NCBI GenBank assembly: GCA_965262985.1
Contig: OZ253576.1
Coordinates: forward strand, 2,057,213 to 2,121,212
Source: Vicinamibacterales bacterium
Lineage (GTDB): Bacteria > Acidobacteriota > Vicinamibacteria > Vicinamibacterales > UBA8438
Reading direction: 5' to 3'
DNA length: 64,000 nt
In this document: one piece after another, positions 27,867 to 37,291 of the stretch
Layout of the letters: each line of letters starts with the position of its first letter
Numbering within the stretch: position 1 is the first letter of the stretch
The notes under the pieces: model-generated
What the model saw: the letters and a program-made list of their open reading frames with translations, nothing else
What the model was told of the DNA's origin: nothing
Databases searched by the model: none
Translations under genes and position numbers: made by a program

Positions 27867-28619
27867 CTACCGCGTGGCCGCCGGCAGCACGGATAGCAGG
27901 GGCTGCAGCGCGTCGTAGACCCGATCGGCCACGATCTCGGCCCCGGCAGCGTTGGGGTGGATGCCATCCGATTGATTGAAGGACGGGTCGGCGGCAACCC
28001 CATCGAGCAGAAACGGCATGAGCGTCACGTCAAAGTCGTGCGCCACCTCGCGAAATGCGTCACGAAACTGCGCCGTATAGATCGAGCCGAAATTGGGTGG
28101 CGCCTCCATGCCCGCCAGCAGTACCGCGATACCACGCTCCCTGGCCAATGAGACGATCCGGGACAGATTCTGTTTCATCTGATCGACCGGCAGCCCGCGC
28201 AACCCGTCGTTGCCACCCAACGCCACGATGAGAATACGGACATCCCCTTCCACCGACCACGCCGCCCGACGCCACCCGGCGGCCGACGTATCTCCGGACA
28301 CGCCGGCGTTCACCACCGTCACGTCGTAGCCGTCATGGTGCAGCCGCCGTTGCAGCAACGCCGGATAGGCCTGGTCCTCAGCGAGTCCGAGTCCTGCCGT
28401 CAAGCTGTCTCCCAGCGCCACGAGAAGCGGCCCGCGGTCGGCCGGCGGCGACGCCTGGAAGGTATCGTCCGCTGGCTCGCCCGTTGCGCTGCGTTCGGCA
28501 GCGGATTCGTGCAGAACAGGTTCCGGCGCCGGCTCGCCCCCTGTTCCGCAGGCCGGCGACGCCACCCCAAGCGCGACCGCCAGCAGACCGCGGCCGACGG
28601 CGCCCGAGGCAATGCACAT
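27867..28619 (-). CDS. SGNH/GDSL hydrolase (TesA-like arylesterase/lysophospholipase)
   Basis: Lipoprotein-like signal (MCIASGAVGRGLLAVALGVASPACG), block I ALGDSLTAG, GGNDGL, and a C-terminal DGIHPN. Confidence 0.85.
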   Translation of the reverse strand: MCIASGAVGRGLLAVALGVASPACGTGGEPAPEPVLHESAAERSATGEPADDTFQASPPADRGPLLVALGDSLTAGLGLAEDQAYPALLQRRLHHDGYDVTVVNAGVSGDTSAAGWRRAAWSVEGDVRILIVALGGNDGLRGLPVDQMKQNLSRIVSLARERGIAVLLAGMEAPPNFGSIYTAQFRDAFREVAHDFDVTLMPFLLDGVAADPSFNQSDGIHPNAAGAEIVADRVYDALQPLLSVLPAATR

Positions 28620-28783
28620 CGCCCTATTATGCAACAGCGGTGCGACTCGACGACCGCCGGCGGCCACCGCCAGATTCAGCAGCGATGCGCCGGCGAAGAG
28701 ACCACGCTTGTGTCAGCAAACCCGGCATGTAGAATAGGCTGATCCGGCAGGCGACCCACTGCGGCGTTCGAGGTCCCGTTCAC

Positions 28784-30469
28784 ATGAATGCAACCATTCT
28801 CGCCCTCATCGGTCTCTCGTGCATCTACCTGGGTTATCGGTTCTATTCGAAATTCATCGCCGAGAAGATCTACCAGCTCGACCCGGATTTCGAGACCCCC
28901 GCTCACGCGCAGCGGGACGACATCGACTTTATCCCGACCAACCGGGTCGTGTTGTGGGGCCATCACTTCACCGCGGTGGCCGGCGCCGCGCCGATCATCG
29001 GTCCAGGCATCGCCGTCATCTGGGGATGGCTGCCGGCGTTCATCTGGGTGATCGTCGGCACCATGTTCTTCGCCGGGGTGCACGATTTCGGCGCGGTCTG
29101 GGCCAGTGTCCGGAACCGGGCGCAGTCCGTCGCCTCCCTGAGCGGCGACGTCGTGAGTCCGCGGGCTCGGACATTGTTCGGAATCGTCGTGTTCTTCCTG
29201 CTGATGATGGTCAACGCCGTCTTCGGCGTGGCGATCTCTGATGCCTTTCAGGAAACCCCGAGCAGCGTCATCCCGGCCTGGACCGCGGTTGGCGTCGCGG
29301 TGGTCATCGGTGTCCTTATCTACCGCATGCACGTGCCGATTCTGTGGCCCACCGTCGCCGGCACGGTGGTGCTGTACGCGGTCATCTATCTCGGCGAGGC
29401 GGTGCCGATCGAGTTGACGGCGGGCGCGTTGGGCCTGCCGGTGGGCGCCCAGTGGATCCTCATCCTGTTCCTCTACGCCGGAATCGCGTCCCTGCTGCCG
29501 GTCTGGTTGCTGCTGCAGCCGCGCGACTACATCAACGGCATTCAACTGTTCATCGGACTCGGGCTCCTCTACGGCGCGGTGATGATTGCCAGCCCGTCGA
29601 TCGTGGCGCCGGCCATCAATCCGAACCTGCCCGCCTCGGCGCCGCCGATCTTCCCGCTGCTGTTCGTGACGATTGCCTGCGGGGCCATTTCCGGCTTTCA
29701 TGGCCTGGTCGGTTCCGGCACGACGTCGAAGCAGCTCAACAAGGAGACCGATGCCCGGTTCGTCGGCTATCTCGGTTCGTCCGGCGAAGGCGCGCTCGCG
29801 CTGGTGGCGATCATCGCCGCCACCGCCGGTTTCGCATCGCTGGGCGAGTGGGAAACGATGTACTCCGAATTCGGGAACGGCGGGATGGCGGCCTTCGTCA
29901 CCGGCGGCGCGCGCATCGTGGCAGCCGGTGTCGGCATCTCGACCGAGTTCGCGGCCACCCTGCTCACCGTCATGGCGGTGCTGTTCGCCGGCACCACGAT
30001 GGATGCCGGGGTCCGGCTGCAGCGCTACATCGTGCAAGAGTGGGGCACCATCTACAACATCCCGGTCTTGCAGAACGGCTACGTGGCCACGGTCGCGGCG
30101 GTCGCCGCCTGCCTGCTGCTGGCGTTCGGCGCCGGCGGACCGAGCGGTGAGGGCGGCATGCTCATCTGGCCGCTGTTCGGCACGACCAACCAACTCCTCG
30201 CCGGGCTGACGTTGCTGATCATCTCCGTCATGCTCGTGAAGCTGGGACGGCCGGCCCGCTACACGCTGATCCCGATGATCTTCATCACCACGGCCTCGCT
30301 CGGCGCCGCGCTCGTCCAGCTCAGATCGCTGTACAACGAAGGCGGCATCCTCTATCCGCTGCTCTGGATCGACGTCGTTATCGTCTTCCTGGCGATCTTC
30401 ACCATGCTGGAAGCCGGCTCGGCGTTCATGCGCGAGAAACGGGCGGCCGAGGCGAAAGCGGGCGCCTGA
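28784..30469 (+). CDS. cstA: Carbon starvation protein A (CstA family peptide/pyruvate transporter)
   Basis: YRFYSKFIA, VLWGHHFTAVAGAAPIIGPGIAVIWGWLPA and CGAISGFHGLVGSGTTSKQL motifs. Polytopic membrane protein. Confidence 0.93.
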   Translation: MNATILALIGLSCIYLGYRFYSKFIAEKIYQLDPDFETPAHAQRDDIDFIPTNRVVLWGHHFTAVAGAAPIIGPGIAVIWGWLPAFIWVIVGTMFFAGVHDFGAVWASVRNRAQSVASLSGDVVSPRARTLFGIVVFFLLMMVNAVFGVAISDAFQETPSSVIPAWTAVGVAVVIGVLIYRMHVPILWPTVAGTVVLYAVIYLGEAVPIELTAGALGLPVGAQWILILFLYAGIASLLPVWLLLQPRDYINGIQLFIGLGLLYGAVMIASPSIVAPAINPNLPASAPPIFPLLFVTIACGAISGFHGLVGSGTTSKQLNKETDARFVGYLGSSGEGALALVAIIAATAGFASLGEWETMYSEFGNGGMAAFVTGGARIVAAGVGISTEFAATLLTVMAVLFAGTTMDAGVRLQRYIVQEWGTIYNIPVLQNGYVATVAAVAACLLLAFGAGGPSGEGGMLIWPLFGTTNQLLAGLTLLIISVMLVKLGRPARYTLIPMIFITTASLGAALVQLRSLYNEGGILYPLLWIDVVIVFLAIFTMLEAGSAFMREKRAAEAKAGA

Positions 30470-30492
30470 TCCGCCTCGGCGGTCATACCAGC

Positions 30493-30759
30493 ATGACGGA
30501 GCCCCAGAGCCGGTTCGAGCGCGTGAAGGCGCTGCTCGAAGAGTTCTACGTCGCCCCTCATCGGGGCGCCGTGGCTCGGGCGCGCCGCGACGAAGATGAC
30601 CTGTTCATGCTCTTCGTGTTCGCCGAATTGATGGGTGTCCCCAACCCGGCGGCGTACTACACTCTCGAACTCCAGCCGCTGCTGCTGGAGCGCTTCCACG
30701 ACTGGCATCGCCGTCAGGGGCTCGATCATTCACCGCTCGACGGATTCCGCTGCTGCTGA
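30493..30759 (+). CDS. Small protein ending in Cys-Cys-stop (resembles the family annotated as 'cory-CC-star protein'; assignment from memory)
   Basis: 88 aa, high GC3, C-terminus ...PLDGFRCC followed by the stop codon. It lies 24 nt after cstA and directly upstream of an ArsA-like ATPase gene. Confidence 0.65.
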   Translation: MTEPQSRFERVKALLEEFYVAPHRGAVARARRDEDDLFMLFVFAELMGVPNPAAYYTLELQPLLLERFHDWHRRQGLDHSPLDGFRCC

Positions 30760-30814
30760 CGGCCGGGATGCTCCGCGCCACTTCCCCCTGCACCGATCCC
30801 GAGCGGAGGCTCTC

Positions 30815-31843
30815 GTGGACACGCTGTTGACCCGACCCCTGCTCTTCGTCGGCGGGAAGGGGGGTGTCGGAAAGACCACAACGGCGGCCGCGCTCGCCGT
30901 GGCGGCCGCCAGCCGGAACCGCCGCTGTCTGCTCGTATCGACCGATCCGGCCCACTCGCTCGCCGACCTGTTCGGCCGCACCATCGGCAACCGCGACACC
31001 GCTGTGACGAAGTCGCTGTGGGCCCTCGAGATCGATCCCGATCAGCAGGCTAACGAGCACCTCGCCAGCGTCAAGGCGCGCATGAAGCGGCTCGTGCATC
31101 CTCGTGCGTACGACGAAATCGACCGGCAACTCGATCTTGCGCGGCTGGCCCCCGGAACGATGGAGGCGGCGATGCTGGAACGCGTCGCCGAGGTCATGGC
31201 GCTGGCGGGGACCGAGTACGATCAGGTCATCTTCGACACTGCGCCCAGCGGACATACGGTTCGACTCCTGTCGCTGCCTGAAGTCATGGCGGCCTGGATC
31301 GACGGCCTGCTCGGACACCGGAAACGCTCGGCGCAACTCGGGTCGGCGCTGCGCCACCTGGGTGGAGGACGCGTCAAGGGCGACGACCTGTCGATGCTGG
31401 ACGCGGCGTCGGATCATGACGAAGGCAGCCGCGACGCCCAACTCAGCGAACTGCTCCTGGCACGCCGCCGCAAGTTCGTACGCGCGCGCGAGCGACTGCT
31501 CGATCGTGAGCAGACCTCGTTTCTGCTGGTCGTGAATCCCGACCGCTTGTCGGTCCTCGAAACCATCAAGGCGCACGAGATTCTGACCAGATTCTCCGTG
31601 CCGGTGTGTGGACTCGTCGTCAACCGCGTGCTGCCGGCCGAGGCCGACGGTGCGTTCCTCGAGGCACGGCGCCGGCAGGAATCGCAGTATCTGACGCAGA
31701 TTGACGAGGTGTTCGCGCGCTTGCCGCGCGTGCGGGTGCCGCTGTTGCCCGGCGACGTACGGGACCTCGAGACGCTCGCCCGGCTCGGCCGCACCGTCGC
31801 CGGCCTTGACATCACCAGCGGCCGACCCGCAGCGCCGGCGTAG
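30815..31843 (+). CDS. ArsA/GET3 family ATPase (single-domain)
   Basis: Deviant Walker A GGKGGVGKTT, STDPAHSLAD, and switch II FDTAPSGHTVRLLSLPE. I chose the GTG at 30815, 5 nt after GAGCGGAGG. The longer track ORF (from 30635) overlaps the upstream gene. Confidence 0.88.
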   Translation: MDTLLTRPLLFVGGKGGVGKTTTAAALAVAAASRNRRCLLVSTDPAHSLADLFGRTIGNRDTAVTKSLWALEIDPDQQANEHLASVKARMKRLVHPRAYDEIDRQLDLARLAPGTMEAAMLERVAEVMALAGTEYDQVIFDTAPSGHTVRLLSLPEVMAAWIDGLLGHRKRSAQLGSALRHLGGGRVKGDDLSMLDAASDHDEGSRDAQLSELLLARRRKFVRARERLLDREQTSFLLVVNPDRLSVLETIKAHEILTRFSVPVCGLVVNRVLPAEADGAFLEARRRQESQYLTQIDEVFARLPRVRVPLLPGDVRDLETLARLGRTVAGLDITSGRPAAPA

Positions 31844-31850
31844 CCGCGCG

Positions 31851-33353
<1,503 letters not shown>

Positions 33354-33529
33354 TCCGGTTCTCCCCTCCTCGTGCCGGCCGGCGCCGCGTCCCGCTTCAC
33401 GGACGCGCACCGAACTTCACCGACCAGACATGAAATACTGCCCGTCGGGTGGTCAAGCGATTATCATAACCCGGTTAGCGATACGCCCCGAGCGAGCGTC
33501 CGCGCCACGACCCCGGGGCTGTCAGGACC

Positions 33530-36217: not shown

Positions 36218-37291
36218 TTACGAGGCGACGGCTGGCGCAAGCGCGGCGATCGAGATCTGGGCGGCCGTGCGCTCTGCGACATCCAGAAACGCGCGGGCCG
36301 CCGGCGAATCGGGTTCGGAAATCACGATCGGGTGGCCGCTGTCGCCGCCCTCCCTGATTGGCTGATAGATCGGAATGCGTCCGAGGAACGGCACACCCAT
36401 GTCTGCGGCGGCCGCTTCGCCGCCGCCCTTGCCGAAGATGTCGCTCTCGTGGTCACAGCGGGGACAGAGGAAGTGACTCATGTTCTCGACCAGACCGAGT
36501 GTGGGCACGTTGAGTTTGCGGTACATCGCGACGGCCCGGCGCGTATCGGCGACCGACACCGCCTGCGGGGTCGTCACTACGACCGCCCCGGACACCGGCA
36601 CGGTCTGGCTCAAGCTCAGAGCCACGTCACCGGTACCCGGCGGCATGTCGACGACCAGGTAGTCCAACTCGGCCCAGCGCACCTCGCGGAAGAACTGCTG
36701 CACGACGCCGTGCAGCATCGGACCCCGCCAGATGATCGGCGTCTCGTCCTGGGTGAGGAATCCCATGGAGACGACAGGGATGCCGTATTTCTCGGCCGGC
36801 ACGATCTTCTTCCCGTCGGTTTCGAGTTGCGCCCGCACGCCGAGCATCAGTGGAATGTTGGGGCCGTACACGTCGGCGTCGATCATGCCCACCCGACCGC
36901 CGTATTTCGCCAGCGCAATGGCGAGGTTGACCGCCACGGTGCTCTTGCCAACGCCGCCCTTGCCAGCCCCGACCGCGATGATATTCCTGACGCCGGGGAT
37001 CGGGGCTCGACCCGCCTCGGGTGACGCGACCGCGCGCACGTTGGCGGTCATGCCGACCTTGACCCCCGTGACTCCATCAAGCGCCGACACCGCCGCCACC
37101 GCCTGATCGTGCATCTGCTCCTTCACCGGACAGGCCGGGGTGGTCAACTCGATCTCGAACGACACCTCCCCGTTCTCGATGTGCAGTGCCTTCACGAAGC
37201 CGAGGCTGACGATGTCGCGGCCCAGGTCGGGGTCCTGTACGACTCGCAGTGCGTCGAGCACCGCAGTTGATTCGACTGTCCGTGTATTCAT
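36218..37291 (-). CDS. Mrp/NBP35 (ApbC-like) iron-sulfur cluster carrier ATPase
   Basis: N-terminal DUF59-like domain, P-loop GKGGVGKST, the CPRC motif (FLCPRCDHESDIFG), and LGRIP. Confidence 0.93.
   Translation of the reverse strand: MNTRTVESTAVLDALRVVQDPDLGRDIVSLGFVKALHIENGEVSFEIELTTPACPVKEQMHDQAVAAVSALDGVTGVKVGMTANVRAVASPEAGRAPIPGVRNIIAVGAGKGGVGKSTVAVNLAIALAKYGGRVGMIDADVYGPNIPLMLGVRAQLETDGKKIVPAEKYGIPVVSMGFLTQDETPIIWRGPMLHGVVQQFFREVRWAELDYLVVDMPPGTGDVALSLSQTVPVSGAVVVTTPQAVSVADTRRAVAMYRKLNVPTLGLVENMSHFLCPRCDHESDIFGKGGGEAAAADMGVPFLGRIPIYQPIREGGDSGHPIVISEPDSPAARAFLDVAERTAAQISIAALAPAVAS

Follow-up and report, generated by a model that had tools for sequence, protein, structure and literature searches.

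The cstA-cstX-ATPase operon of a Vicinamibacterales bacterium and the apparent partnership of its Cys-Cys-tailed small protein with a Get3/ArsA-family ATPase

Castillo and Saier (2010; PMC2963123; Int J Microbiol 2010:187373) described cstA-cstX-arsA operons in bacteria and archaea, in their ArsA clusters 14-18, in which CstX has about 90 amino acids (aa), the ArsA homologues are single-domain proteins of about 330 aa and the trees of CstA, CstX and ArsA co-evolve, and they proposed that the ATPase energises CstA through CstX acting as a linker. In E. coli, members of the CstA family import pyruvate, and possibly peptides, by means of the proton gradient. There ybdD, located 182 nucleotides (nt) downstream of cstA, specifies a 65-aa protein with the end ...GGARCC; its deletion cuts pyruvate uptake as deletion of cstA does, and the double mutant is no worse (Hwang et al., PMC5847655). 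The subject of this study is a locus of the first kind in a Vicinamibacterales bacterium (contig OZ253576.1, forward strand, positions 2,057,213 to 2,121,212); this whole stretch of 64,000 nt is called the window, and coordinates are counted from its first letter. Three plus-strand genes form one unit here, namely cstA (28784-30469), a small gene whose last two codons specify cysteine (cstX, 30493-30759) and the gene of a single-domain Get3/ArsA-family ATPase (30815-31843), with minus-strand genes on both sides.

The gene content and order of this unit, with products of 561, 88 and 342 aa, are those of the published operon, and the triad loci that we collected come from the same genera or family as loci of the 2010 paper, whose clusters 17 and 18 include Chromohalobacter, Idiomarina, Alcanivorax and Pseudomonas stutzeri. 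Equated by gene order, size and taxa, and not by sequence comparison, the CstX of that paper is probably the protein curated since as cory-CC-star or DUF7990. The operon association was thus published in 2010, both small-protein families considered here are already curated as function-unknown, and the window's locus is an ordinary member. The 2010 paper makes no mention of the Cys-Cys (CC) terminus or of the parallel with YbdD, and our literature search yielded nothing on this CstX, cory-CC-star or DUF7990 published since. What the present analysis adds is an autonomous pair of small protein and ATPase, a constraint on the small protein that depends on CstA, an N-terminal helix specific to the CstA-linked clade and a basic-Cys-Cys tail common with an unrelated family; its value is a sharper hypothesis rather than a discovery.

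The first-pass annotation of the window, made from the letters alone, had reported an 88-aa open reading frame (ORF) ending in GFRCC after cstA and then an ArsA-like ATPase with the motifs GGKGGVGKTT and DTAPSGHT, all of which was confirmed; the distances of 24 and 56 nt that it gave were right within one base, the gaps being 23 nt from the cstA stop to the small ORF and 55 nt from the small ORF to the ATPase gene. The small ORF, which ends ...SPLDGFRCC-stop, is not a chance reading frame. By its sequence the product is a clear member of the cory-CC-star/DUF7990 family, as that annotation had suggested: the profile check it proposed gave a match to the NCBIfam model NF041419 of 127.1 bits against a curated cutoff of 80 (E = 2e-37, model positions 2-80 of 80). 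A word-indexed search returned 751 homologues, which carry Pfam PF25952 (DUF7990), and a full hidden Markov model scan picked out no more than 155 clusters at E <= 0.001 among 1.84 billion cluster representatives, so the family is compact. Homologues with a conserved CC terminus do exist, which the annotation had named as a point on which its reading could fail; the two cysteines end the protein in 119 of the 120 best homologues, and a CC-stop closes the small gene in all 160 loci that we assembled, 80 linked to CstA and 80 without it.

The co-conservation of cstA, the CC-tail gene and the ArsA-like gene that the annotation had anticipated was borne out across genomes. A scan of one genome per species detected a relative of the small protein in at least 586 species, and the best 80 loci were retained. 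They come from Vicinamibacterales, Longimicrobiales/Gemmatimonas, Halomonas and relatives, Idiomarina, Pseudomonas/Halopseudomonas, Alcanivorax and Marinomonas, together with one metagenome-assembled genome (MAG) of the Rhodospirillaceae and one of the Mycobacteriaceae, and thereby span at least four phyla (Acidobacteriota, Gemmatimonadota, Gamma- and Alphaproteobacteria, and the Mycobacteriaceae MAG). In 80/80 loci tblastn placed the end of a CstA gene just upstream of the small gene; read in its correct frame, the ATPase starts just downstream in 79/79 testable loci (79 of 80 in all, the contig of L040 stopping 69 nt past the small gene). Gene order and orientation are constant in the testable loci and the flanking genes vary. 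The loci nearest to the window's triad belong to other Vicinamibacterales genomes, in which CstA is 90% identical. That three independent genes merely happen to lie next to each other is effectively excluded by this constancy of order and orientation across at least four phyla with differing flanks, by the short intergenic gaps and by the published co-evolving trees. The triad is well supported as a real and strongly conserved gene unit, which upholds the functional triad suggested in the first-pass annotation, an idea that goes back to Castillo and Saier (2010).

In 17 Vicinamibacterales loci a second CstA paralogue, about 42% identical to the first, follows the ATPase gene about 1-3 kb after the small gene, giving the order cstA1-cstX-ATPase-cstA2 (L012, L014-L017, L019, L022-L025, L028, L034, L035, L037, L063, L067 and L074); the window has no second copy. 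We found no YbdD-like or other CC-tailed ORF after this second paralogue or elsewhere in the loci.

The unit is not indivisible, since the small protein and the ATPase also occur together where CstA is absent. A metagenome scan seeded with the subclade whose members end in PCC yielded 80 loci (L086-L165) on soil and sediment contigs, with the tails PCC, SCC, ACC or GCC. Under a strict criterion of non-overlap the ATPase gene stands directly downstream in 67 of 74 loci, and in most of the others the ATPase match overlaps the end of the small gene. CstA was found in 0 of the 68 testable loci of this subclade, and clustering of all ORFs of the 80 loci gave no third universally conserved neighbour, the remaining neighbours being lineage-specific. 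The ATPase follows the small gene also in singletons of other subclades (L082-L085, L166, L167, L169 and L170), whose upstream genes vary between a methyltransferase, a glutathione S-transferase (GST) and unrelated ORFs, with an apparent CstA C-terminus in L170 only. Since the pair is kept where CstA is absent, the ATPase is the constant partner of the small protein and the pair is the core module; it is thus apparently the ATPase, and not CstA, that is the primary partner of the small protein. The autonomy of the DUF7990-ATPase pair is new with respect to the 2010 paper and contradicts its statement that cstX never occurs without cstA.

Two observations on the neighbours of this pair may be recorded here. 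In 32 CstA-less loci the ATPase gene is followed by a convergent gene for a BadF/BadG-like kinase fold, which was recognised by eye only. At L169:22-690 a GST gene is directly upstream of a DUF7990-ATPase pair with an HCC tail, a single case that is a possible hint of thiol chemistry.

The CstA-linked clade is set apart by several features of the small protein. The residue before the CC is basic in 80/80 CstA-linked loci (R in 72, K in 8); in 79/80 CstA-less loci this position holds P, S, A, G or T. A strict rule that a basic residue before CC marks CstA linkage was rejected on two exceptions, P0243, which ends in ACC and is fused to the N-terminus of a CstA, and L167, which has RCC after the end of a non-CstA upstream ORF; the relation is a tendency, not a rule. 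Compared at 40-60% identity of the ATPase, the 70-residue DUF7990 core is 79-82% identical among CstA-linked pairs and 64% identical among CstA-less ones, and at 40-50% ATPase identity within the CstA-linked clade CstA stands at 63% and the DUF7990 core at 79%, which makes the small protein the most conserved of the three. The constraint on its sequence is therefore higher where CstA is present. The two clades resemble each other unevenly along the protein: their consensus sequences agree at 67% in helix 2, at 57% in the tail and at only 23% in residues 17-38 (EFYVAPHRGAVARARRDEDDLF; 30541-30606, plus strand), a block of the first helix that is specific to the CstA-linked clade, within which its conservation is 0.86 and its consensus EFYxAPYRGAxARARRDEDD. 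Helix 2 and the tail thus probably carry a function that is shared with the ATPase, and the block in the first helix may be a clade-specific contact, most simply with CstA, which makes it the candidate CstA-facing surface.

These observations fit best with a refined form of the proposal of Castillo and Saier, in which DUF7990/CstX is a soluble adaptor that sits on a dimer of the Get3/ArsA-type ATPase and docks it onto CstA, letting ATP gate or energise the carrier. In such an arrangement CstA would be the membrane carrier and CstX a soluble hairpin of helices whose flexible C-terminal arm ends in Arg-Cys-Cys, and an obligate partner of the ATPase. The CstX-ATPase pair would have been recruited to CstA in this clade, with the clade-specific N-terminal helix touching the transporter and the second helix and CC tail serving the function held in common with the ATPase, and binding or hydrolysis of ATP by the dimer would then gate, regulate or energise CstA, as ArsA turns ArsB into an ATP-driven pump. 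The physical contacts, the assignment of surfaces to partners and the effect of ATP on transport are what we infer. We regard this as the best-supported reading because of the co-conservation of the triad, the existence of the core pair, the constraint on the small protein and the precedents of ybdD and of the 2010 paper, although we put its probability at somewhat less than even. Several points weigh against it. The DUF7990-ATPase pair exists without CstA or any other conserved transporter neighbour, and coupling to transport is therefore not in itself its basic function. In E. coli, CstA and BtsT are proton-driven carriers that work without an ATPase (PMC7730263), so that the fold does not require ATP. 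The higher conservation of the small protein in the CstA-linked clade may also have other causes.

The comparison with the arsenical pump shows how far the analogy with ArsA can be carried. Both systems encode a deviant-Walker-A ATPase of the same family alongside a secondary carrier, and the pump likewise has a small accessory protein with vicinal cysteines, ArsD, which serves ArsA. The carrier of the window, however, is unrelated to ArsB, and no ArsR is present at the locus. Where ArsA has two domains and three metalloid-binding cysteines, the window's ATPase has one domain and no conserved cysteine: C38 and C265 are its only cysteines and neither is conserved, and among 131 orthologues from both clades we found no conserved Cys, no CXXC and no equivalent of ArsA C113/C172/C422. 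With 153 bits against the ArsA equivalog TIGR04291 (cutoff 650) and a single 342-aa domain, it is not a pump-driving ArsA. Its membership of the wider family is clear (267 bits against TIGR00345, the GET3/ArsA/TRC40 model with a cutoff of 135, and 236 bits against PF02374), and the nucleotide-binding and switch motifs, among them the P-loop GGKGGVGKTT (residues 13-22; 30851-30880, plus strand) and DTAPSGHT (residues 141-148; 31235-31258, plus strand), are invariant in the 131 orthologues.

The closest relatives of the ATPase with a solved structure are proteins of the Get3/TRC40 type, namely archaeal Get3 (3zq6, E = 2.6e-60; 3ug6) and Chlamydomonas ARSA1 (5zme), all single-domain and of the homodimer type; E. 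coli ArsA and eukaryotic Get3 come next. This kinship lends weight to a different account, in which the ATPase is a Get3-like dedicated chaperone or targeting factor and the small protein is its client, the moderately hydrophobic helix LFMLFVFAELMGV being held by the ATPase and delivered to a membrane partner, here CstA, so that the small protein would end up as a YbdD-like subunit of the transporter. The inseparability of ATPase and small protein even without CstA would agree with such a role, as would the hydrophobic stretch, on which Castillo and Saier scored CstX as a protein with one transmembrane segment. That scoring is not supported here. The highest 19-residue Kyte-Doolittle average of the small protein is 1.34, below the usual threshold of 1.6 for a transmembrane helix, and the protein is therefore read as soluble and not membrane-spanning; the stretch, moreover, is central and not C-terminal. 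On the side of the ATPase, the segments that match the client-binding helical subdomain of Get3 are 30-36% charged and about 25% hydrophobic, the CXXC zinc site of Get3 is missing and the partner is not a tail-anchored protein. A client relation alone would also leave the invariant CC tail unexplained. We consider this account unlikely, though it is compatible with CstX as an adaptor between ATPase and CstA, as is the one on the CC tail given below.

An AlphaFold2 model of the small protein, computed with the alignment, has a mean predicted local distance difference test score (pLDDT) of 85.5 and consists of two long helices (residues 4-46 and 52-74) and an unstructured tail (75-88) that bears the CC, and neither sequence search nor Foldseek found a solved structure resembling it. 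The small proteins of the window's clade have 66% mean column identity across phyla and 35 invariant positions. Near-invariant across 64 diverse DUF7990 members, which were selected for a CC end, are G48, P52, P62, H69, W71 and G76. H69 and W71 are at least 90% conserved in this set and belong to the motif H69-D-W71-H72 in helix 2 (30697-30708, plus strand), the core common to all DUF7990 clades, whose pattern H-x-W-H is invariant in both clade alignments. The terminal cysteines C87 and C88 (codons at 30751-30756, plus strand) follow R86; ends in other subclades are PCC, SCC, GCC, FCC and CSCCC. Among the divergent members P0281, P0325 and P0328 there are expanded tails, PCSCCC and PCGCC, and the sequences of a few very distant and probably archaeal members close with ...QYHF or ...DYDLDA, without any cysteine.

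The same tail links the small protein to YbdD and YjiX, the DUF466 (PF04328) proteins, whose RCC end after cstA had been correctly stated in the first-pass annotation: an R/K-C-C end is present in 25/25 aligned DUF466 members, and a preprint by the curator of these families (10.1101/2022.07.06.499078) describes the R-C-C end of YbdD/YjiX and a Lys-Cys-Sec version, with selenocysteine (Sec), in Campylobacter. Both small genes stand directly after a gene of the CstA family (CstA or BtsT in the case of YbdD/YjiX), and both products are small cytoplasmic proteins that combine a helical body with an unstructured tail ending R/K-C-C. The annotation had also judged the body of the small protein to be unlike YbdD, and this held. 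YbdD is modelled with three short helices at a mean pLDDT of 72, in contrast with the two long helices of the window's protein, and it has no ATPase partner. Homology between the two families was rejected, since the Pfam search gave no DUF466 match at E <= 1 and hhalign gave a probability of 11-23%, which fell to 0.4% once the last three columns were left out. None of the 160 loci carries a DUF466 gene. The likeness lies in design, that is in a small helical body, a flexible basic-Cys-Cys arm and a position after cstA, with no demonstrable ancestry behind it.

The tail suggests a third account, in which the vicinal cysteine pair and the nearby H-x-W-H form a redox or soft-metal swinging arm. 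At the cytoplasmic face of CstA such an arm would capture, sense or pass on a thiol-reactive substrate, or would sense redox state, in a cycle driven by the ATPase. Arms of this kind are found in mercuric reductase (its C-terminal CC), ArsD (its vicinal Cys pairs) and thioredoxin reductase (its Cys-Sec tail). That the CC is the sole strictly invariant feature across the family, as judged on the 160 loci, with H69 and W71 close to invariance and the tail modelled as unstructured, would suit such an arm, and so would its presence in the unrelated DUF466 partners of CstA, some of which are Cys-Sec selenoproteins (10.1101/2022.07.06.499078). CstA for its part offers two invariant cysteines and three invariant histidines, C299 (in the motif TIACGAISGFH), C443, H60, H61 and H306, which are invariant in 74 orthologues and correspond to E. 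coli C335, C525, H91, H92 and H342; these five shared residues are candidate contact or chemistry partners of the CC tails. The ATPase, however, has no conserved cysteine that could accept a metal or disulfide from the tail, and a search of its conserved Cys and His turned up only the family-wide histidines of DPAHS and DTAPxGH. Genes of the ars, mer or redox kind and metal regulators are absent from the loci, and pyruvate, the known substrate of the family, needs no thiol chemistry. One DUF7990 gene on a metagenome contig (L168:470-553, protein P0273) reads ...GFR-TGA-TGC-TGA, with an in-frame TGA in place of the first tail Cys codon. Such a gene would favour a thiol role if it encoded a Sec-Cys tail mirroring the Cys-Sec of DUF466, but this single example may also be a sequencing error, and the GC-rich hairpin that follows 9 nt further on is not significant (z = -1.19). 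With both sides of this evidence weighed, a thiol, redox or metal arm seems to us an unlikely role for the tail.

The carrier itself differs from its E. coli counterpart in ways that bear on its substrate. The window's CstA belongs to the CstA family (Transporter Classification 2.A.114) with 440.6 bits against Pfam PF02554 (cutoff 27), and it reaches only 220 bits against the E. coli-type equivalog NF011590, whose cutoff is 1188. Over 566 columns it shares 31% identity with E. coli CstA; at 561 against 701 aa it is 140 aa shorter, and it is without three parts of the E. coli protein, namely an N-terminal extra helix, a central insertion of about 60 aa and a C-terminal insertion. Because it falls below the equivalog cutoff, has this low identity and is shorter, the pyruvate substrate of the E. 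coli type is not to be assumed for it. We found no solved structure of the CstA family.

A wider possibility is that two unrelated families, DUF466/YbdD and DUF7990/CstX, independently gained the same flexible [R/K]-Cys-Cys-COOH arm for service with CstA-family transporters, and that the DUF7990-ATPase pair is an autonomous machine, widespread in soil bacteria without a transporter, which one lineage joined to CstA. We offer this as a speculation that is somewhat unlikely to hold. If it were true, the CC arm would serve transporters generally as a thiol-based device on their cytoplasmic side, of which selenocysteine variants may exist, and bacterial Get3-like ATPases would have a dedicated small-protein partner instead of tail-anchored clients. 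Carriers of the CstA family are widespread and provide the main route of pyruvate import in enterobacteria, and they depend on tiny CC-tailed partners. The operon unites CstA, a CC-tailed protein and a Get3-like ATPase and occurs in cultivable Halomonas, Idiomarina, Chromohalobacter, Stutzerimonas and Alcanivorax, so that the role of the CC tail, the control of a CstA carrier by ATP and the question of what bacterial Get3 homologues bind can all be tested with it.

Some features of the locus concern gene calling and surroundings. A mechanical ORF list placed the start of the ATPase gene at GTG 30635, within the small ORF. This start was rejected: the family profiles do not begin to align before about residue 61-70 of this frame, and a GGAGG ribosome-binding site, read from the sequence at 30805-30809 (plus strand), lies 5 nt upstream of GTG 30815, and the gene is therefore taken as 30815-31843. 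Signals of regulatory RNA, promoters and terminators around the operon did not rise above chance. A gene for an Mrp/NUBPL-type iron-sulfur carrier ATPase, also of the deviant-Walker-A kind, lies 4.4 kb downstream of the triad (36218-37291, minus strand); it is a housekeeping gene and showed no link to the triad in other genomes. The triad is flanked upstream by a GDSL lipase gene (27867-28667) and downstream by an S-adenosylhomocysteine (AdoHcy) hydrolase gene (31851-33410), both on the minus strand.

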